A stretch of 64,000 nt of DNA from assembly GCA_016432625.1 (NCBI GenBank), contig CP066697.1, positions 151,113-215,112 on the forward strand. Direction: 5' to 3'. This document shows, piece by piece, positions 30,373 to 60,100 of this stretch. The stretch's first letter is position 1. Every line of letters begins with the position of its first letter. Position numbers and translations under genes: made by a program. The notes beneath the pieces are model-generated. The model saw nothing but the letters and a program-made list of their open reading frames with translations. It ran no database searches and had not been told where the DNA came from. This DNA is from Candidatus Berkelbacteria bacterium (GTDB taxonomy: Bacteria; Patescibacteriota; UBA1384; 2-12-FULL-50-11).

Positions 30373-31101
30373 ATGTCGGGTCATTCTAAGTGGGCGCAAA
30401 TCAAAAGGCAGAAGGGCGTTGCTGACGCCCGTCGCTCGGCAACTTTCGGCAAACTAACATGCGCTATTACGATTGCTGCCCGCCAGGGCGCCGATCCGAC
30501 GATGAATTTTCAGCTGCGGATCGCTATAGACAAGGCCAAAGCTGCCAACATGCCCAAAGATAATATCGAACGAGCGATCGACCGCGGTAAAGGTGGTGCG
30601 GCCGGTGGCTTGGAAGAAATGTCGCTCGAGGCTTACGGCCCGGGCGGCACGGCGTACCTAATTGAGGCGGCAACTGATAACCGTAATCGGACAATCAGTG
30701 AAGTTCGTGCCCATCTAAATAAGTTCGACGGCAAGCTGGCGGAATCCGGCGCCGTCAAATACCTCTTCAAGCACGTCGGGCAGATTATTTATGAGACTGA
30801 TAAACCGGAGGAGCTAGAGCTCTCGGCGATCGACGCCGGGGCGACAGATGTTGAGCAAGACGGCGGGACGGTTGTGGTGACTACTGAACCGAAAGGGCTG
30901 GAAGCGGTGCGCCGTAACCTTGAGGAGCTTGGGTACGAGAGCAACGAGGTCGGCTTAGAATGGCACCCAACCGCAACTGTTCCAGTGACCGATCCGGCCA
31001 TCGCGAAGAAAGTTATTCATCTTAGCGAAGCTCTCGACGTACTTGACGACGTAACGCACGTCTCCAGTAACTTTGATGTACCCGCGGAGCTGATAGAGTA
31101 G
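30373..31101 (+). CDS. yebC: YebC/PmpR family DNA-binding transcriptional regulator
   Basis: MSGHSKWAQIKRQKG N-terminus diagnostic for the YebC family. Start moved to the second ATG at 30373. Confidence 0.85.
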   Translation: MSGHSKWAQIKRQKGVADARRSATFGKLTCAITIAARQGADPTMNFQLRIAIDKAKAANMPKDNIERAIDRGKGGAAGGLEEMSLEAYGPGGTAYLIEAATDNRNRTISEVRAHLNKFDGKLAESGAVKYLFKHVGQIIYETDKPEELELSAIDAGATDVEQDGGTVVVTTEPKGLEAVRRNLEELGYESNEVGLEWHPTATVPVTDPAIAKKVIHLSEALDVLDDVTHVSSNFDVPAELIE

Positions 31102-31107
31102 GACAGC

Positions 31108-31593
31108 ATGGAGGGCAAACGAATTCTTGGCATCGATCCGGGCACGACCAGGCTCGGTCATGGCTTGATAGAAATTATCGAAGGCAAACCGTCGCTAATT
31201 AATCACGGCTGTATTGAAACGACGCCGAACTCCCCCGAAACCCAAAAGCTGTCGCATATTTACGAAGAGATGGTTCGATTGGTGAAAGAAATCAAGCCGG
31301 ACTTAATTGCTGTCGAGATGATCTTTTTTGCTCGCAATTCAACGACTGCTTTTGCTGTTGGCCAGGCCCGCGGTATCGTTCTGTTAGTCGCGGCACAGGC
31401 TAATATCCCGATTGCTGAAGTTGCCCCCCTCCGCTTGAAAAAAATCTTGCTTGGCAATGGCACTGCCAAGAAAAAAGATATTCAACACTTTATTAAAGAC
31501 TACTTCGGCCTTGAGAAGATTCCGAAACCGGACGACGCCGCTGATGCTATTGCCGTGGCGCTGACGCAGTTTTTGGTACCAAAAGCGCTGTAG
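31108..31593 (+). CDS. ruvC: Crossover junction endodeoxyribonuclease RuvC
   Basis: ILGIDPGTTRLGHGLIE...DLIAVEMIFFARNSTTAFAVGQARG...DDAADAIAVAL. RuvC catalytic acidic residues. Conserved yebC-ruvC synteny. Confidence 0.85.
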   Translation: MEGKRILGIDPGTTRLGHGLIEIIEGKPSLINHGCIETTPNSPETQKLSHIYEEMVRLVKEIKPDLIAVEMIFFARNSTTAFAVGQARGIVLLVAAQANIPIAEVAPLRLKKILLGNGTAKKKDIQHFIKDYFGLEKIPKPDDAADAIAVALTQFLVPKAL

Positions 31594-31640
31594 CTTTGGG
31601 CACTTTGACTGGATTCTACATCTGGAAAAGAGTATAATTT

Positions 31641-32909
31641 TTGCTACCACAGCTCCAGAATAAAAAAGAAAAGGAGAGCATGTCTCCATTAAATACCCGC
31701 GGTAAATTAGCCGTCCGCCTTAAGGCGACGGAACCGCGCGTCCGGGTAATCTACGTCTCAACCTACATCCCACGCGAGTGCGGTATTGCGACGTACACCA
31801 AAGACCTTACTAATGCTATAAACCTGCTTAATCCTTATTGTCTGGCGGACATTGTTGCGATCGACGATCGCGATATGAACAAAACCAACTACCGCTACCC
31901 GTGGGAGGTGAAATATAAAATCCAGCAAAACAGCCCGAAGTCCTGGCGCGAGGCAGCCGCTTATATTAACCAGTCCAGCGCGGAGATTGTTCACTTTCAG
32001 CACGAATTTGGTATCTATAGTTCATCTGCTGGCTCTGCCGGTGAGCACGCCGTTTTGCTTGCTGAAGCGGTCAACAAACCGATCGTTGTAACTTTCCACA
32101 CGGTCTTGCCACGTCCAAGCAAGGCTCAACTAGCAAGTGTTCGTAAGCTCGCCAAGCTTGCCACGGCCATCACTGTTATGGTCGGTGCGGCGGTTAAACT
32201 TCTAGTAGATGTCTACGGCATCGACGAGAAGAAAATTGTTGTCATACCGCACGGCGTGCCAGACATTGGCTACACAACCACCAAAGGCGCCAAAGAGTAT
32301 CTAGGCCTCGGAGACGCGACGATAATTTCTGGTTTTGGCTTACTCAGCGAAGGCAAGGGTTATGAATACGCCATCGAAGCGATGCCCGCGATCGTCAAGC
32401 AAAACAGCAACGTCAAACTCCTCATCATTGGCGAAACTCATCCTGTTGTTCTTCGCCATCAAGGCGAGGCATATCGCCATAAACTCCACGCTCTAATTAA
32501 AAAACTCAAATTGTCACGTTCAGTAAAAATGGTAAATCGTTACCTGACGCTTGGGGAAATAATCGATTACCTAAAGGCGACAGATATATATATCACGCCG
32601 TTTTTGGGATTGGAACAGATTACTTCCGGCACGCTCTCTTATGCCATCGGTGCCGGTAAGGTCTGCGTTACTACGCCATATCGCTACGCGGAAGAGGTGG
32701 TGGACGACGATCGCGGCGTGTTAGTACCGCCAAGAGACTCGTGCGCAATGGCCGCGACTATCAACGATCTGCTCGCCCACCCAAGAAAGTGCTCGATTAT
32801 GTCCAAAAAAGCATATGCCTATGGGCGTAATATGATCTGGCCGAGCGTTGCCCTGAGGCATCTAGATCTCTTCGAGATCGTTAAAAAGGTTAGCTATGCT
32901 CGAGCTTAA
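31641..32909 (+). CDS. Glycosyltransferase family 4 (GT-B, retaining)
   Basis: N-terminal RVIYVSTYIPRECGIATYTKDL and C-terminal EX7E region (RYAEEVVDDDRGVLVPP) typical of GT4/GT1-fold enzymes. Confidence 0.7.
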   Translation: MLPQLQNKKEKESMSPLNTRGKLAVRLKATEPRVRVIYVSTYIPRECGIATYTKDLTNAINLLNPYCLADIVAIDDRDMNKTNYRYPWEVKYKIQQNSPKSWREAAAYINQSSAEIVHFQHEFGIYSSSAGSAGEHAVLLAEAVNKPIVVTFHTVLPRPSKAQLASVRKLAKLATAITVMVGAAVKLLVDVYGIDEKKIVVIPHGVPDIGYTTTKGAKEYLGLGDATIISGFGLLSEGKGYEYAIEAMPAIVKQNSNVKLLIIGETHPVVLRHQGEAYRHKLHALIKKLKLSRSVKMVNRYLTLGEIIDYLKATDIYITPFLGLEQITSGTLSYAIGAGKVCVTTPYRYAEEVVDDDRGVLVPPRDSCAMAATINDLLAHPRKCSIMSKKAYAYGRNMIWPSVALRHLDLFEIVKKVSYARA

Positions 32910-33930
32910 AGAGTTTCGTAACCGGCCGGTACTTACCCACTTGAAACGCCTGACAACAAAAGACGGGCTAGTTCAGCACGCCGATAAAGAAGTCCCCGAC
33001 CCGAGTTTTGGGTACTCGATTGACGATAACGCCCGCGCCTTAATGGTCTGCCTCTGGCACCACAAGATATTCGGCGATGAGGCAATTCTACGGCTGGCCG
33101 AAATCTACTTTAACTACGTTAAAAAAGTCGAAAAAGACGGCGGAAGCTTTCACAACTTTCTTAGTTTTACCGAACAAATTTTGGATAACGAGGGCTCGGA
33201 GGACTCTATCGGCCGCGCGATTTGGGCCCTGGGAGAAGCATGTGCAGATTCACCGATGAAGTTCATGAAAGAAGCTGCAGAGGGGTCCTTGAAGCGCTCA
33301 GCGCTAGAGCATCACTTGGAGCATCCACATGTGCGGACAAAAGCATATGTTTTACTTGGTTTAATTTCAGCGAATGACGAAACAATGGCTCGAATTTGGG
33401 CCAATAAATTAGTCGATATTTTTCACGCTAATTCAAGTCCCGACTGGCAGTGGTTTGAGGAAGCTCTGCGTTACGCTAACGGCATTTTGCCGTACGCCTT
33501 GGCGAAAGCTTACATTTCTACCAAAGACAAACGATACCTGGAAATTTCAGAGCAATCTTTCCGTTGGTTGAATGGAGTCTCAAGGCTCGATGACAAGCCT
33601 GCACCGATTGGCCAGAACGGCTGGTACTTCAAGGATGGTGACAAAGCTGAATACGACCAACAGCCACTAGAGGCGGCCGACATGGTTCTTGCTGCCACGG
33701 CGCTCTACGAGGCAACGAAAAACGAGGAGTTTCTACGAAACGCCCTTGAATGGATGAGTTGGTATCACGGCAATAACACCGCTAATAAACCGCTCATTAG
33801 CGAACAGACTGGCGGCATATACGACGCTGTGACGCCAGGCGGTGTCAACGAGAACCAAGGAGCCGAGTCGATCGTCACATATTTGCTGGCCTACCTTGCC
33901 TTGTCCGAGATCGCTCATGAGTCCGCATAA
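32896..33930 (+). CDS. Hypothetical protein, possibly an (alpha/alpha)6-barrel glycoside hydrolase/epimerase-like enzyme; first of the genes following the GT4
   Basis: 344-aa ORF overlapping its neighbours. Assignment only by loose resemblance of helical repeat organisation (low confidence). Confidence 0.35.
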   Translation: MLELKEFRNRPVLTHLKRLTTKDGLVQHADKEVPDPSFGYSIDDNARALMVCLWHHKIFGDEAILRLAEIYFNYVKKVEKDGGSFHNFLSFTEQILDNEGSEDSIGRAIWALGEACADSPMKFMKEAAEGSLKRSALEHHLEHPHVRTKAYVLLGLISANDETMARIWANKLVDIFHANSSPDWQWFEEALRYANGILPYALAKAYISTKDKRYLEISEQSFRWLNGVSRLDDKPAPIGQNGWYFKDGDKAEYDQQPLEAADMVLAATALYEATKNEEFLRNALEWMSWYHGNNTANKPLISEQTGGIYDAVTPGGVNENQGAESIVTYLLAYLALSEIAHESA

Positions 33931-34879
33931 ATTGGGCGTCATTGGCGCTGGGGCTTTTACGGACTTCGCACTCCAAGGTTACAAAGAGCATCTCGACACG
34001 CTTGAATTAACAGCGATCACCGACCCTAAATTGGAGCTCGCCAAGAGTCTGGCCGCAAAATATGGCATAAAAAAAGTATATGCTTCGAACGAGGAGTTGT
34101 TTCAGGATGAGAGTATCAGTATCGTTTTGATCCTGACGCCGCCTAACACTCATTTTGTACTAGCCAAGCAAGCGCTCGAACATGATAAACATGTGTTAGT
34201 CGAAAAGCCGATCGCCTTTAAGGAAGATGACGCCCTCGAGTTAATCAACTTGGCAGACGCAAAATCCAGACAACTTTCCGCCAACCTAGTTTTGCGCCAC
34301 CACCCATTCCACAGAAAAATTGCCGACTACGTTCAGAACGGCTCGCTGGGTAAACTAGAGAGAATCGAGTCGGTCGCTAAACTTGCCGCTTATCCGGTCG
34401 GCCACTGGTACTGGGACGCCAAGATCAGCGGCGGGTTTTTCCTGAACACTTTTTGTCACTTCTTAGACTTGTATGATTTCATCTTTGGCTTGTCGCCAGG
34501 CAGTCTTGAGTCCTCAGGAAGTACCGACAAGGTCGTGACAATTAAATCAACCTATCCTGACGGCCAGAGCGCGACGCTTCAGGCAGATATCCACGTCAAG
34601 AACGAAGACGAGTTTGTGGAGACCGTCTATTTTTTCGAAAAAGCCGTCATTAAAACCCGTGGCTGGCTGCCAGAAGAAATGGCTATAGAGCAAGACGGCG
34701 CACTCAAGACCTGGCGAAATGATGAAAAGTTGCCACTTTATCGCCAGCTACTCGCCGAAATTATGGAGGAACTACTACGACGCGTTGATAATCCCGCCGT
34801 GAAGACGCTCATAACTCACCAGGCCTTGCTTCAAGCGGTCAAGAGCCCTACAAGAGCAGAGCATAATTGGTTAAGCTAA
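33917..34879 (+). CDS. Gfo/Idh/MocA family NAD(P)-dependent oxidoreductase
   Basis: Rossmann N-terminus KLGVIGAGAFTDFALQGY...VLVEKP (EKP motif). Start set at ATG 33917 (MSPHKLGV). Confidence 0.75.
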   Translation: MSPHKLGVIGAGAFTDFALQGYKEHLDTLELTAITDPKLELAKSLAAKYGIKKVYASNEELFQDESISIVLILTPPNTHFVLAKQALEHDKHVLVEKPIAFKEDDALELINLADAKSRQLSANLVLRHHPFHRKIADYVQNGSLGKLERIESVAKLAAYPVGHWYWDAKISGGFFLNTFCHFLDLYDFIFGLSPGSLESSGSTDKVVTIKSTYPDGQSATLQADIHVKNEDEFVETVYFFEKAVIKTRGWLPEEMAIEQDGALKTWRNDEKLPLYRQLLAEIMEELLRRVDNPAVKTLITHQALLQAVKSPTRAEHNWLS

Positions 34880-34972
34880 GTCTCAGGGAGGGAACCAATC
34901 GAACAATACGGCGAGTTTTCCCATCAGGGAGACGAATACATTATCTATCGGCCTGATACGCCCAAACCTTGG

Positions 34973-37297
34973 GTGAACTTTATAACTAACGGCCAATACG
35001 TCGCGCAGGTTTCCCAGACAGGCGGCGGGCATTCGTTTATTGAAGACTCGGCCTATAACCGTATAACCAGGGAAATCCCGGGCGATAACCTCATCGAAGA
35101 CCGCCCCGGGCGTTACGTCTATATCCGCGACAACGATACCGGCGAGTATTGGGGCTTAACCTGGCAGCCGGTCATGAAGAAACTCGACCATTTTCAGACT
35201 CGTCACGGCATCGGCTACACCACCATTGAATCGTCGTACGACGGCATTGATGGCTCAATTACTTATTTCGTGCCACTTGAGGACCCGTGTGAGATCTGGC
35301 AGATCAAACTCAATAACTTTACAGAGCGCAAAAGGCGCCTAAGTATTTTTGTTTTCGTTGAATGGGATCTAGGCGTCAGACATGAAAATATCCTTGAGGC
35401 AGCCTTTAACGATTTGTTTAACGACATGATCTTTAAAGACAACACGATTTTCGCGACCAAACGGCGCTGGAACACTGCCGAGCGGGAGGGTCTGTATTGG
35501 GATAAAGTAGCGTTTCTGACTATGGATCATCAGGCGGATAGTTTTGACTGCATTAAAGAAAGATTCACCGGTATGTACGGTGACATTATTGCGCCGAAGG
35601 CTGTCATCGAAGGTAAATGCACCCGGAGTCAGGGATTAGGTCACCGCGCCGTTGGCGTTTTGCAGAAAAATATCACTCTCGGTCCGAAAGCGCCGGCGCA
35701 TTTCAACGTAATTCTCGGCGCTGGTTACACAAATCCCGAAGCAAAGAGCTTCGTTCAAGCCCAAACTTCGGGCATGCGTCACGCGGCCAAAATCATTGAA
35801 AAGTATCAGAAACCAAGCGCCATCGAACAAGCTTTTGAAGCTGTTCGCGCTCACTGGGAAGAGTATAACGGCCACGTTATGAGTAAATCGCCCGACCCGT
35901 TATTCGATTATTCATTTAATTATTGGAACAAGTATCAGTCTTGGATTACCAGCCACTGGTCTGAGATGGACACATATTATATCGGCGGCGGCGGCACGAT
36001 CGGTTTTCGAGACATGGCGCAGCACTTGATCGGCGTCATGCCAAACGATATCACCCTCGCTCGTAAACGTCTGCTCGAATTGCTCAGCTACCAATTCAAA
36101 GAGGGTCGTACAGTACATAACTGGGACAAGCTGACCAAGCGGGGTCATGTCACTGACCATTCCGACGACACTCAGTGGCTGATTACCTCAGTGTTGTTTT
36201 ACCTGAAAGAAACCGGCGACCTCAAATTCCTCAAAGAGGAAGTCGATTACTACGACACCGGACGGGCCACGATTTTACATCACGTCATTCGAGCGATGGA
36301 TTACAGCTTGAAGCACTTGTCCAGCCGCCATTTGCCGTATCGGATGAGCGCCGACTGGAACGACGCCCTAAATGGGGAACACGAGAGCAAAGGCGAGAGC
36401 CAGATGGTTGCTTGCCAGATTTGTTACAACATCCGCGAACTGGCGCCGTTCTTAAATGAGATCGGCGAGCACGAGTTGGTTGATAAATACCAGCGGATTT
36501 ATAAGAAAATAAAAGAATCTGTTAATCACTATCTTTGGGATGGCGGTTGGTACACTCGGGGTACCGCCAAAGACCATTCCGCTATTGGCTCAAAAAAGAG
36601 TAAAGCCAACAAGATCGATATTAACGCCCAAAGTTGGGCGGTGCTAAGCGGTGTTGCCGACAAGCCCCGCGGTATTAAGGCGATGGACGCGGTCTGGAAA
36701 CACCTCAACACCAAATACGGTCCGGCGATGTTTTTACCTTCATATCAACACCCAGAAGAACGCTACGGCGTGATCTCGCAATTTACGCCTGGCACTAAAG
36801 AGAACGGCGCTATCTTTAACCATCCGGTGGCCTGGGCGGTTATTGCTGAAACGGTTCTGGGGCGAGGGGATCACGCCTATAAGTTCTGGAAAGAGACGAG
36901 TTTCGCCTATCGAGGTCAGGAACCAGAGCTCTATCGCGTCGAGCCGTACGTCTACGCAGAGTTTGTTTACGGTCCGGAGCACCCGGAGTTTGGCCGAGGG
37001 TCTTTCACTTGGGCAACTGGTTCCGCCTCCTGGTTCTGGCGCGCCTGCTTAGATTACATCCTAGGTCTGCAGCCGGTTTTGGGTGGTTTGAAAATCGACC
37101 CATGCTTGCCCAAAGACTGGCGGCAGGTTGAGATCGGCCGCAAGTTCCGTGGTGCCGATTATCACATCCGGATTCAAAATCCGTTCCGCGTTAATCGTGG
37201 CGTTGACCGAATTCTCGTTGACGGCGTCAGAATTACCGGCAACGTTATCGCTCCGTTTAATTCCGGCGTCCACTTTGTCGAAGTAGTCTTAGGCTAA
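34973..37297 (+). CDS. GH94-family disaccharide phosphorylase (cellobiose/cellodextrin-phosphorylase-like). The true N-terminus probably lies upstream of the annotated GTG (see findings)
   Basis: Sequence just upstream in the same frame (EQYGEFSHQGDEYIIYRPDTPKPWVNFITNG) matches the conserved GH94 N-terminus (GxFDDxxREYVITxPxTPxPWINYLG). Followed by GYTTIESSYDGIDGSITYFVPL and the large (alpha/alpha)6 catalytic region. Confidence 0.75.
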   Translation: MNFITNGQYVAQVSQTGGGHSFIEDSAYNRITREIPGDNLIEDRPGRYVYIRDNDTGEYWGLTWQPVMKKLDHFQTRHGIGYTTIESSYDGIDGSITYFVPLEDPCEIWQIKLNNFTERKRRLSIFVFVEWDLGVRHENILEAAFNDLFNDMIFKDNTIFATKRRWNTAEREGLYWDKVAFLTMDHQADSFDCIKERFTGMYGDIIAPKAVIEGKCTRSQGLGHRAVGVLQKNITLGPKAPAHFNVILGAGYTNPEAKSFVQAQTSGMRHAAKIIEKYQKPSAIEQAFEAVRAHWEEYNGHVMSKSPDPLFDYSFNYWNKYQSWITSHWSEMDTYYIGGGGTIGFRDMAQHLIGVMPNDITLARKRLLELLSYQFKEGRTVHNWDKLTKRGHVTDHSDDTQWLITSVLFYLKETGDLKFLKEEVDYYDTGRATILHHVIRAMDYSLKHLSSRHLPYRMSADWNDALNGEHESKGESQMVACQICYNIRELAPFLNEIGEHELVDKYQRIYKKIKESVNHYLWDGGWYTRGTAKDHSAIGSKKSKANKIDINAQSWAVLSGVADKPRGIKAMDAVWKHLNTKYGPAMFLPSYQHPEERYGVISQFTPGTKENGAIFNHPVAWAVIAETVLGRGDHAYKFWKETSFAYRGQEPELYRVEPYVYAEFVYGPEHPEFGRGSFTWATGSASWFWRACLDYILGLQPVLGGLKIDPCLPKDWRQVEIGRKFRGADYHIRIQNPFRVNRGVDRILVDGVRITGNVIAPFNSGVHFVEVVLG

Positions 37298-37483
37298 AAT
37301 AGCGGCTGGCTCAAGTCGATAGTAATCGGTTCGAAGAATTCTGCGGCCCCAATGCCGCTATTTTGCAGTTGAATTAGCAACGCATAAGCGCCGATTGCCA
37401 GAGTTACGAAAAATACAAACGCGTAGAGTAGTAACCAGCGACGTTCCTTGTGGCGCGCACTCATTAGAATTAGACTACATCAA

Positions 37484-39493
37484 ATGCCAGAGCCTATCAC
37501 GCTTTCAAGCAGTATCACCAAATTGTATGGCGTGGGAGAGCAAGTGCAGACCAAGCTCTCTAAGCTCGGCGTCAAAACCGTCAGAGACCTGCTTGAATTA
37601 TTGCCTCATCGCGCCGAAGATCGGACGAACCTTTGTTTGATTAAAGATTTAAAGATCCAAGACGAAGCGGTGATTCACGGCACGATAACTCGTGTCAGCG
37701 CCCGGATGAGCAAGCGCGGTGTTTTGGTAATTGAAGCGAGAGTTAAAGATAACAGCGGCTCGATTAACGCAGTTTGGTTCAATCAACGTTACTTGCTGAA
37801 GAATTTAGAAGAGGGACAAAGCATCAGTCTTTACGGCGCTAAACGAATTGTACCGACAATGGGGAACCCGTTTTTCGTTAAGAAAATTATTTCTAACTTG
37901 GAAATTGCTCCTATATATCCCGGAACCTCGGGTCTGAATCAGGCAACAATCAGCCGATTGATTTCGCAAGTTCGGCCGCTCCTAACCAGCATTAAGGATA
38001 TTATCCCACCCAAAGTCGTGACAGAACTTGGCCTGCCGTCACGTCGGTTAGCGTTGGAAGCGGCGCATTTTTCGCCAAACGAAAAAACCTTAGAACAAGC
38101 ACGCAAGTTACTTGGCTTCGAAGAGCTATTTATACTGTGTTTGCAGGCTTTGGTTGCCAAAGAGTCTCGTCAAGAGGATCGGGCGATGAGCATTAAGCCT
38201 GAGGGTAAAGAAATCGCAAGAATAAAAAGTAGTGTTGGTTTTGATTTAACGGCTTCTCAGGAGGAAGTGCTGTCGGAAGTGATCTCGGATCTAAGCGAAT
38301 CTTACCCGATGAACCGCTTGCTCTACGGAGAAGTTGGTAGTGGCAAGACGGCAGTTGGTTTGATAGCGGCGGCAATGGTCGCCCGACGAGGCAAAAAAGT
38401 GGTTTGGCTTAGTCCAACAACGGCGCTTGCCAACCAGCAAGCGCGGCTAACGGGAGAATATTGTAATAAGTTACAGTTAACTTGTAGTCTACTGACCGGT
38501 CACCATAAGGATCCACATGAAAAGGCGTCAGTTATCGTTGGTACGCACGTTCTTTTGCAAGAGAAGGTTACCTTGGGAGATGTGGGGCTGGTGGTTATCG
38601 ATGAGCAGCATAGGTTCGGGGTCGACCAGCGCAACTTCTTACTGAAAAATCATCCGCACGCCCATTTATTAATGCTCAGCGCTACGCCAATTCCTCGCAC
38701 ACTCGCGCACACCCTCTTCGGCCACTTAGATGTTAGCTATTTGACCGAAAAACCATCACATCAAAAACCGATTGAGACATATGTCTTTGAAGACGATGAG
38801 CGCGAGAAAGTTGAAGCGCATATTAATAAGCGACTCGAAAGCAAACAGCAAGGGTATATCATTTGCCCACTTATTAATCCGACAGGAAATACGACAACGC
38901 TATTCCAAAGCGAACGAAAAGCCGTGACGACTGAGCTGAAGCGTGTTGAAGAGGCGCATCCTACGGCCAAAGTCGGTCTCTTGCACGGAAGATTAAAGCA
39001 GGAAGATAAGGAGGCGGTAATGCAAGGTTTCATGGAGGGGGAGATCGACATCCTGCTTTCCACAAGCGTAGTAGAAGTTGGCATCGATAATAAAAACGCC
39101 ACTTGGATATTAATTGAGGAGGCAGATTGTTTCGGGCTGAGCCAGCTTCATCAATTGCGTGGTCGAGTTGGCCGAGGTGAACGGCCGTCGGTTTGTTTTC
39201 TGCAAAATTCACAAACTACTGAGCACGCAACTGAGAGATTGAAAGCTTTGAGGAACGCTAAAGATGGTTTAGAAATAGCTGAGTTTGATTTAAAGTTTCG
39301 CGGGCCGGGCAATATCGCGGGTTACGAGCAAAGCGGCTTGCCCAATCTTCGTTACGCTGACTTAAATGACCTCGGGGAAATAAAAAAAGCATATACTGCA
39401 GCTAAGGAAATTATGGACGAAGGGTTGAGTAAGTATCCGCTGCTAACAAAACAGCTAAAGAATGGTCAGGAAAATGGACTTGCCGCGGCTTGA
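37484..39493 (+). CDS. recG: ATP-dependent DNA helicase RecG
   Basis: N-terminal wedge/HhH (KLYGVGEQVQTKLSKLGVKTVRDLL); helicase motif I GEVGSGKT; DEQHRFGV; QLRGRVGRG. The ORF-track TTG at 37448 is possible but the ATG at 37484 was preferred. Confidence 0.85.
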   Translation: MPEPITLSSSITKLYGVGEQVQTKLSKLGVKTVRDLLELLPHRAEDRTNLCLIKDLKIQDEAVIHGTITRVSARMSKRGVLVIEARVKDNSGSINAVWFNQRYLLKNLEEGQSISLYGAKRIVPTMGNPFFVKKIISNLEIAPIYPGTSGLNQATISRLISQVRPLLTSIKDIIPPKVVTELGLPSRRLALEAAHFSPNEKTLEQARKLLGFEELFILCLQALVAKESRQEDRAMSIKPEGKEIARIKSSVGFDLTASQEEVLSEVISDLSESYPMNRLLYGEVGSGKTAVGLIAAAMVARRGKKVVWLSPTTALANQQARLTGEYCNKLQLTCSLLTGHHKDPHEKASVIVGTHVLLQEKVTLGDVGLVVIDEQHRFGVDQRNFLLKNHPHAHLLMLSATPIPRTLAHTLFGHLDVSYLTEKPSHQKPIETYVFEDDEREKVEAHINKRLESKQQGYIICPLINPTGNTTTLFQSERKAVTTELKRVEEAHPTAKVGLLHGRLKQEDKEAVMQGFMEGEIDILLSTSVVEVGIDNKNATWILIEEADCFGLSQLHQLRGRVGRGERPSVCFLQNSQTTEHATERLKALRNAKDGLEIAEFDLKFRGPGNIAGYEQSGLPNLRYADLNDLGEIKKAYTAAKEIMDEGLSKYPLLTKQLKNGQENGLAAA

Positions 39494-53578: not shown

Positions 53579-53965
53579 TGGTGGACCTGCCGGGAGTTGA
53601 ACCCGGGTCCGAGAACCTACGAACGAAGACGTCTACAAGCGTAGAAAGTTTAAAGTCTTAGCAGCTGGGCTTGAGAGCTTTCAAAAAACCCGACTGAGCA
53701 ACATCTTATTCTGAGGAGTTGTACCGATGTGCGCACAATCCCGGTTCTACTTTTTGACGCCTCGTTACCTTAGTAGAAGTCAGGTGACGAAACGGCATTG
53801 GCCGTTAGGCTAATGCTGTTGCAAAAGAAGGAGTCGCGAACAAGTTCGCAACACGAGCTTTTGCAGTTTCAAATGCGTTTGCACGTATTTGTTTTGCGCT
53901 CTAAGGCAGGCGCGTCCGCTTGCAGTCCTCGCTGTAAACGTTCCCGTCGAAGCCAGTACAGGCCC
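53579..53965 (-). ncRNA. ssrA: tmRNA (ssrA)
   Basis: The - strand 5' end is GGGCCTGTACTGGCTTCGACGGG (tRNA-Ala-like acceptor with G3·U70 wobble plus the conserved UUCGACGGG box). The 3' end is GGACCCGGGTTCAACTCCCGGCAGGTCCACCA (T-arm plus acceptor plus encoded CCA). Internal reading frame ...GCA ACA GCA TTA GCC TAA (tag ending ATALA*). Confidence 0.8.
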
Positions 53966-58964: not shown

Positions 58965-59930
58965 TTACTTACGGCCAACGTAGGCGACAACGTTACCGCG
59001 TGGGATGGCGCGCTTGGTAACAACGGCCCAACCGGCGAAGTTCATCTCTGAAACATAGACGTATTGGGCGTCGAATCCTTCAACGTAGGCGACGTGTCCA
59101 ACGGGCGATTCCCAAGTTACAGCCACGTCTCCGACAGCTGGTGAGGATTTGACAGGAATGCCGTTTAAGCGGGCATAAGCAGGGTACTGGCCGCCATTGC
59201 CCATCTTTGCCGGCAAGTCAGGACGCTTGTATTTGACCCAGTTGGTGCATTGGCCACGGAAAGCGCCGTTAGTTGGCAGATTGGTAAATTTGCCAACCAC
59301 AGTGTAATCGCCGTAGCTTGCCACTCTAGTACCCCCGCTTCGCGGGGTTGTAGTTCGCTGGTTGCGCTGTAGGCGACGCTGCTTTTCTAGCTCAGCCTGA
59401 CGCGCGGCTTCGCGTTCCTTTTCCTTAATGGCGTTCAATTCGTCTAGCCATGCGAGTGAGGTTGAATCTGGTTTCTCGCTGGACGGAATAAGAATCTCGG
59501 TGCCCGGCTTAATCTTCTCAATATCAGCCACGGCAATGTTGTTGGTCTCTATAAGCTGAGCAACGGTAGTGTTATAGCGACCAGCGATGCCCATCAAGCT
59601 ATCGCCCTTCTCTACGGTATAAGAAAAAGCGTAAAGCTGTTGAACTTCACCAGTAAGAATGGTTTGGCCGATAAAGAGTTGCGGCTTGCCGACAAAACCA
59701 GCGGCTTGCGCCTCGATCTGCTCGTCGATGATTGAAGAGGCGTAAAAGTTCGGGTCGTAGGCCTGGCCTTCCCCAACTGAAAAGGTTAGAAAGACCAAAA
59801 TAAACGAGCCGAAGCTAAGCTGTGTCGAGTAACGGCGGATAAATTTTCGGACGCGCTTGGTTTGTGGCCTGGCAAGATATGACCTCAGAAACAGCCGGCT
59901 GTTGTCGGCACCGTTAATAAGCCGGTTCAA
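58965..59930 (-). CDS. Peptidoglycan hydrolase with LysM and CHAP domains
   Basis: LysM: YTVEKGDSLMGIAGRYNTTVAQLIETNNI. CHAP: GQCTNWVKYKR...GHVAYVEG (Cys/His catalytic pair). Confidence 0.75.
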   Translation of the reverse strand: MNRLINGADNSRLFLRSYLARPQTKRVRKFIRRYSTQLSFGSFILVFLTFSVGEGQAYDPNFYASSIIDEQIEAQAAGFVGKPQLFIGQTILTGEVQQLYAFSYTVEKGDSLMGIAGRYNTTVAQLIETNNIAVADIEKIKPGTEILIPSSEKPDSTSLAWLDELNAIKEKEREAARQAELEKQRRLQRNQRTTTPRSGGTRVASYGDYTVVGKFTNLPTNGAFRGQCTNWVKYKRPDLPAKMGNGGQYPAYARLNGIPVKSSPAVGDVAVTWESPVGHVAYVEGFDAQYVYVSEMNFAGWAVVTKRAIPRGNVVAYVGRK

Positions 59931-60100
59931 TATTGGCTCTAAATGTCTGGAAAGTTTTTTTAGTCGAAGTTGTAGCGAATGAAATGTATCAGCAAGGATA
60001 CGAATCTGCCTCCTTTTGGTGAGACGAGACCCAGTTTACCGGTTATGACTTTTCTGTCAACCCCCAGCTAAGCTTCGCTATTAGAGGAATATACAAATGC

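Follow-up and report, generated by a model that had tools for sequence, protein, structure and literature searches.

The GH94 locus and its start site

The window analyzed here is the whole stretch of 64,000 nt from a Candidatus Berkelbacteria genome (contig CP066697.1, positions 151,113 to 215,112), and our subject is the start of a glycoside phosphorylase gene of family GH94 that lies directly behind a Gfo/Idh/MocA-family oxidoreductase gene. According to our analysis, GH94 is very probably a separate gene, translated under the direction of a Shine-Dalgarno sequence (SD) from the non-canonical codon AUC at position 34898. The junction carries the following features:

33917..34879, + strand: Gfo/Idh/MocA-family oxidoreductase, 320 aa (ATG 33917, TAA 34877-34879; Pfam PF01408 and PF22725)
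34886..34892, + strand: SD GGGAGGG, with a 5-nt spacer (AACCA) to ATC
34898..34900, + strand: ATC, proposed GH94 initiation codon
34898..37297, + strand: full GH94 glycoside phosphorylase coding sequence as proposed, 799 codons and TAA (Pfam, PDB alignments, orthologs, AlphaFold model)
34973..34975, + strand: GTG, start in the public annotation (QQG50314.1, 774 aa), read here as internal Val26

The oxidoreductase, the third gene of the operon, is supported by a Prodigal-type gene call on an identical contig of the Logan assembly (L021), and its open reading frame (ORF) ends in ...N W L S TAA. The junction reads AAT TGG TTA AGC TAA GTC TCA GGG AGG GAA CCA ATC GAA CAA TAC GGC GAG TTT. Past the TAA the same frame translates as VSGREPIEQYGEFSHQGDEYIIYRPDTPKPWVNF..., which is the conserved GH94 N-terminus. 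The original prediction, made from these letters, had placed the two genes in frame across the single TAA at 34877-34879 with no ATG, GTG or TTG ahead of the GTG at 34973, and both statements were borne out by the reading of the ORFs. The scan of the frame found no canonical start in the 31 codons between this TAA and the GTG, which is the first canonical start in frame and lies 25 codons past the ATC. The ATC at 34898 is the sole near-cognate codon at a workable distance from the SD. The predicted SD is present with a 5-nt spacer, although it begins at 34886 and not at 34885.

The TAA is genuine as far as assemblies can tell: the junction in the independent assembly L021 is identical to that of the window, and the identical 774-aa product is found in two NCBI Berkelbacteria genomes (QQG50314.1 and QQG51919.1). 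A nearby ATG arising from a sequencing error, which the prediction had considered, was not found. Sequencing or assembly error is ruled out by L021, by the two NCBI genomes and by the presence of ATC in a 91% identical ortholog from another sample.

Identity and N-terminus of the GH94 protein

The assignment to GH94 is based on two Pfam domains (PF06165, 2.5e-69; PF17167, 3.9e-111) and on full-length alignment to solved cellobiose and chitobiose phosphorylases (1v7v, 8ho9, 3qde); no NCBIfam equivalog matched the protein. By its domains, an N-terminal supersandwich and an (alpha/alpha)6 catalytic domain, and by its fold it can be regarded as a GH94 phosphorylase, and phosphorolytic activity on a beta-linked disaccharide is predicted. 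Its SADWNDALN segment aligns with RADWNDCLN of 1v7v, and D486, W487 and D489 are invariant in an alignment of 39 sequences. We take the ADWND segment to be the site of the catalytic Asp in cellobiose and chitobiose phosphorylases.

At the N-terminus, K2 of the chitobiose phosphorylase 1v7v (M-K-Y-G-Y-F) pairs with the Q encoded at 34904, two codons past the ATC, and therefore homology begins right at the ATC. The same holds for the solved GH94 enzymes and all 120 homologs, with homology starting at the residue after ATC. G5, P24 and W25 are invariant across the 39 homologs, and the segment YGEF...RPDTPKPW is present in all homologs. In the AlphaFold model of the 799-residue form (predicted local distance difference test score, pLDDT, 90.3), residues 1-25 are confidently folded and contain beta-strands at 5-7 and 13-16, which a start at the GTG would drop. 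Structure and homolog alignments support the expectation that a conserved GH94 N-terminus, (M)EQYGEF, starts at the ATC in the manner of its homologs.

Start sites of the orthologs

The start site was surveyed in 19 distinct Patescibacteria orthologs, window included, taken from genome contigs, metagenome contigs and the contigs of database proteins; the DNA of P0003 and P0020 lies outside this set. The codons ATC, ATA and ATT are referred to as ATH, and as AUH in the transcript. The codons at the SD-proximal start site were:

ATC (6): window, L018, L003, L040, L005, L025
ATA (2): L004, L038
ATT (2): L029, L037
CTG (1): L039 (360-375)
unclear, neither ATH nor canonical (1): L041 (2190-2210; TAA GGA GGG GTC ACG)
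TTG (3): L019, L001, L006
ATG (4): L002, L007, L008, L024

An ATH codon at the equivalent SD-proximal position in 10/19 orthologs gave strong support to initiation at a rare AUC behind a strong SD, one of three options that the prediction had left side by side. In 17 of the 19 the start position is preceded by a GGAGG core at a distance of 2-6 nt, and every ATH ortholog has it in perfect form at this distance. In three of them an in-frame stop touches the ATH (GAT TAG ATA in L004, AAT TAA ATC in L005, GAT TAA ATT in L029), so that nothing upstream can belong to the protein there. In the ATH orthologs the distance to the next canonical start downstream varies from 25 to 92 codons. All complete orthologs are uninterrupted ORFs of 799-844 codons, or 799-810 in the close clade (L008, which runs off its contig, is excluded).

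ATH makes up 6.6% of the internal codons in these genes. The binomial probability of at least 10 ATH among the 12 non-canonical sites is ~1e-10, a value overstated by the relatedness of the orthologs; a conservative count of lineages (5/7 with ATH) gives P = 2e-5, and relatedness inflates this figure too, although both clearly point the same way. A neighbor-joining tree shows the ATH state dispersed over the clade, beside TTG and ATG relatives, and the canonical starts of relatives sit one codon from the ATH position. This indicates turnover of the start codon, possibly with repeated gains of ATH. Judging by the surveyed orthologs, AUC, AUA and AUU together appear to be the commonest start state of this GH94 gene across a Patescibacteria clade of metagenome-assembled genomes labelled Berkelbacteria or Saccharibacteria. 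The ATH starts seem to have been kept over divergences at which synonymous sites are saturated.

Translation of the codons ahead of the GTG

The ortholog L018, from a different sample and with 91% protein identity to the GH94 of the window, allowed a direct comparison of the disputed codons. The 24 codons between the ATC and the GTG differ by 12 synonymous and 0 nonsynonymous changes. In the remainder of the gene the proportions of nonsynonymous (pN) and synonymous (pS) differences are 0.05 and ~0.8, and the latter value means that synonymous sites are saturated. The N-terminal codons are under purifying selection. The start region of L018 is AAGGGAGGG-cttt-ATC, with the ATC kept; in place of the GTG at 34973 it has GTA, and its first canonical start comes 65 codons in.

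The GenBank protein QQG50314.1 (774 aa) thus appears to begin 25 residues late, and QQG51919.1 likewise. Among the 20 closest database homologs, eight are N-terminally truncated calls that miss 25 to ~125 residues. The N-terminal peptide predicted for the AUC-started form is (M)EQYGEFSHQGDEYIIYR.

A second gene with a putative AUH start

The window holds a second candidate of this kind:

58967..60005, - strand: LysM-CHAP peptidoglycan hydrolase, start ATT 60005-60003 (AAGGAGG 60015-60009; promoter TTGACA-N16-TAAACT 60060-60033)

The promoter, leader, AAGGAGG, caR spacer and ATT of this gene are conserved in L043 and in the 62% relative L042. L043 and L018 come from one sample, and the LysM-CHAP leader is nearly identical between the window and L043, while the synonymous sites of GH94 are saturated in what is apparently the same pair of genomes. 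GenBank QQG51945.1 starts the protein 25 codons later, at TTG 59930, and the residues upstream of this annotated TTG align with orthologs. The gene appears to start at the conserved ATT at 60005.

A scan of ~210 kb (the window and the loci of the relatives) for an SD followed by ATH with no upstream canonical start returned GH94 and the LysM-CHAP gene of the window only. A genome-wide excess of such starts was rejected on this result: with only two genes in the scan, AUH initiation is gene-specific and not rampant, at least for strong SDs. At least two of the ~60 genes in the window would use AUH, against two confirmed in all of E. coli.

Proposed mechanism of initiation

We propose that the strong SD GGGAGGG, 5 nt upstream, selects AUC 34898 as the start, and that initiator fMet-tRNA presumably reads the codon despite a mismatch at the third position, which would give a product of 799 residues, (M)EQYGEFSHQ.... 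Measured with reporters in E. coli, initiation at AUA, AUC, AUU and CUG reaches roughly 1-2% of the AUG level; N-terminal Met was found on an AUC-initiated protein, and infC and pcnB, both with AUU, are the only confirmed natural cases (bioRxiv 10.1101/063800). The third codon position is policed by initiation factor 3 (IF3), and only some third-base mismatches are tolerated (PMC10158994). By analogy with the E. coli measurements, the AUH start would give a small fraction of AUG-level initiation and be sensitive to IF3. Low or IF3-tunable expression is therefore likely, partly offset by the strong SD; in prokaryotes weak start codons tend to be paired with strong SDs (PMC5622118). Initiation may also be aided, through coupling of the two genes, by ribosomes that terminate on the upstream cistron 18 nt before the ATC. 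The use of AUC, the insertion of Met and the low expression are what we infer from these comparisons.

A regulatory RNA at the start was considered and rejected: the fold of 34850-34950 is unremarkable (z = -1.76), and the Rfam matches in the window are limited to tRNAs and a tmRNA.

Several observations weigh against AUC initiation. In E. coli, initiation at AUC is very weak, and the organism studied here is uncultivated. The distance from SD to start ranges from 2 to 6 nt among orthologs. L041, which has neither ATH nor a canonical codon at the site, needs another mode of initiation, and this could in principle apply here. In L008 (3980-3992) and L024 (179-190) the ATG lies within the former SD (ATG GGG GGx) and has no SD of its own. 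Finally, the orthologs are phylogenetically non-independent, which overstates the binomial P values.

Alternative explanations

It is unlikely that the start codon has been lost and that GH94 is a recent pseudogene or in effect silent, its ATC being merely an Ile or spacer codon. Relatives with canonical starts do exist (TTG in L019 and L001, ATG in L002), and AUH is a poor initiator in E. coli; however, the ORFs of 799-810 codons are unbroken in at least 10 ATH orthologs across the tree, and a gene that is not expressed would have decayed over such a time. This contradicts the loss of function, as do a pN/pS of ~0.05-0.1 at saturated pS and the specific enrichment of ATH at the SD-proximal site.

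We consider it quite improbable that the annotated GTG at 34973 is the true start and the conserved codons upstream are an untranslated relic. Both Prodigal and NCBI call this GTG, the first canonical start in frame, but no SD precedes it, the codon is GTA in L018, and among the ATH orthologs the first canonical start wanders over 25 to 92 codons. The absence of nonsynonymous changes beside 12 synonymous ones in the 24 upstream codons also speaks against the relic, and a start at the GTG would remove two beta-strands and the YGEF...RPDTPKPW segment found in all homologs. The prediction would have been undermined by orthologs that start at the equivalent of 34973 and lack the upstream conserved residues; instead, the orthologs retain them.

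Initiation could also be independent of the ATC, if terminating or SD-held ribosomes re-initiate near the site whatever the codon (70S re-initiation or drop-off-reinitiation). Drop-off re-initiation that depends on IF3 is known from in vitro work (PMC10158994), an upstream stop lies 18 nt away (30-72 nt in other orthologs), and L041 has no near-cognate ATH at the site. Yet the strong enrichment of ATH, together with one CTG, over arbitrary codons speaks for a role of codon identity, and the ATT start of LysM-CHAP stands behind its own promoter with no upstream cistron, so that we hold this explanation to be just as improbable as a start at the GTG.

The shared frame of the two genes suggested to the original prediction either programmed readthrough or a nonsense mutation in an ancestral fusion. 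The oxidoreductase of L018 and L019 ends AAT TAG; in the window the gene reads AAT TGG at this point and is extended by three codons (TGG TTA AGC, WLS) up to the TAA (34868-34879); the spacer from SD to ATC is also 1 nt longer in the window than in L018. Because of the TAG-to-TGG change and the 1-nt difference, the oxidoreductase and GH94 are in frame only in this genome, and in L018 and L019, the closest relatives, the oxidoreductase stop is in a frame other than that of GH94. In-frame adjacency is expected by chance in one case of three. The other orthologs are preceded by differing genes that end 30-72 nt away, compared with 18 nt in the window. The frame match with the oxidoreductase is, on this comparison, best read as accidental. 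No Gfo domain (PF01408) and no length above 835 aa was found among the 120 best GH94 homologs (675-835 aa), and no GH94 domain among the 150 best representatives of the Gfo oxidoreductase; this leaves the ancestral fusion without a counterpart in either set. Programmed readthrough of TAA 34877 into an oxidoreductase-GH94 fusion protein, which the shared frame of the ORFs on either side of this one stop would favor, is hardly credible. In L018 and L019 the two genes are in different frames, and the TAA of the window is only a secondary stop, which translation reaches because of the TAG-to-TGG change. The linker VSGREP is unconserved and holds the SD; other orthologs follow different upstream genes, some with a stop right before the ATH; TAA is the commonest ordinary stop of the window; and fusion proteins are missing from the two sets just named.

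A frameshift from an upstream ORF was rejected: the frames of the upstream genes vary, and their ends lie 18-72 nt away. L004 has a mini-ORF upstream, spotted by eye, that has no conserved counterpart in L005 or the window. An altered genetic code, with TAA or ATH reassigned, was rejected as well: TAA, TAG and TGA all end long ORFs in the window, and ATH codons inside the genes are matched by I, V or L in the orthologs.

Putative operon and neighboring features

A terminator-like element follows GH94:

37343..37358, + strand: terminator-like GC hairpin and T-rich tail after GH94

No promoter-like site was found in 31000-38000. Together with the terminator-like hairpin, this suggests a four-gene operon of a GT4 glycosyltransferase, a GH-like protein, the Gfo oxidoreductase and GH94, with GH94 as the last cistron. 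The second gene (32896-33930, + strand) follows the glycosyltransferase and precedes the oxidoreductase. Its Pfam match, to GH88, is below threshold, a relative has a 'faint' match to GH76, and NCBIfam gave no match; the product is perhaps glycoside-hydrolase-like. It is syntenic with GH94 across the clade.

On the opposite strand, between GH94 and recG, lies an antisense ORF of 56 aa (37294-37464, - strand) with a hydrophobic, transmembrane-like core and a 4-nt overlap with the GH94 stop. L019 has a conserved counterpart with 65% identity and L041 a weakly conserved one (23%); the ORF was also called at the same position beside other orthologs and probably encodes a real small membrane protein.

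Elsewhere in the window there is a tmRNA gene (53579-53965, - strand; Rfam, 118.6 bits) with the tag peptide ANAFETAKARVANLFATPSFATALA, and nine tRNA genes, among which tRNA-Met is not found. Neither infC nor the initiator tRNA gene lies in the 64-kb window.

Implications

Standard gene callers accept ATG, GTG and TTG only. This restriction leaves enzymes of the GH94 family annotated with truncated N-termini, which harms the prediction of structures, the models of the family and inferences about metabolism in Patescibacteria.

To our knowledge, the bacteria studied so far offer very few natural cases of conserved AUC, AUA or AUU starts. A GH94 family with AUH starts over deep divergence and a second such gene 25 kb away form a concrete test set, which bears on the control of expression by weak starts as opposed to altered fidelity of initiation in bacteria of the candidate phyla radiation (CPR). 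It is conceivable, though in our opinion rather doubtful, that AUH starts are a selected, long-lived device of expression control in this Patescibacteria lineage and not tolerated decay; this reading is prompted by a weak start that recurs or persists in GH94 across the clade and in the unrelated LysM-CHAP autolysin gene. On this reading the AUH starts may reflect relaxed or differently tuned discrimination by IF3 and the initiator tRNA in CPR bacteria, and a percent-level share of genes may be annotated too short. If they are only tolerated drift under weak selection, they are still a useful caution for the annotation of reduced genomes.

Comparison with known systems

A literature search for non-canonical starts, whether in Patescibacteria (CPR bacteria) or in genes of family GH94, found nothing relevant. 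The features expected of a readthrough or split-fusion gene are lacking at this locus: the in-frame arrangement is unconserved, and fused orthologs did not occur in the 120 best GH94 and 150 best Gfo sequences.

The window protein is homologous to the solved GH94 enzymes 1v7v, 3qde, 8ho9 and 2cqs over its full length (E 1e-151 to 1e-110) and has both of their Pfam domains and their N-terminal M-x-[YF]-G-x-F, whereas the identity to them looks moderate in the alignments. The combination of a weak start with a strong SD resembles the start-codon/SD compensation of Belinky, Rogozin and Koonin (2017, PMC5622118), but that study covers switches among AUG, GUG and UUG only, and AUH is outside its scope. 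Since the GH94 orthologs with canonical starts also have strong SDs, compensation is not demonstrated here. The codons found at the GH94 site of the clade (ATC, ATA, ATT and one CTG) are the same set that was studied in the E. coli near-cognate reporters; in contrast to those synthetic constructs, they are natural, evolutionarily persistent and belong to an uncultivated Patescibacteria lineage.

The closest parallels are E. coli infC (encoding IF3) and pcnB, in which AUH behind an SD is likewise the only start and is conserved among relatives. The features of this type are found in GH94: no canonical start lies between the in-frame stop and the conserved N-terminus, the SD is at a functional distance, and AUH is kept while synonymous sites vary. 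As for infC and pcnB, expression would be low and would depend on discrimination by IF3 (bioRxiv 10.1101/063800). Both E. coli genes use AUU, whereas the codon of GH94 is AUC and interchanges with AUA and AUU among orthologs. The product of GH94 is a carbohydrate phosphorylase that is not known to be connected with translation, and no autoregulatory logic is evident. Overall, the mechanism of AUH initiation is a known one, and its clade-wide persistence is what is new.

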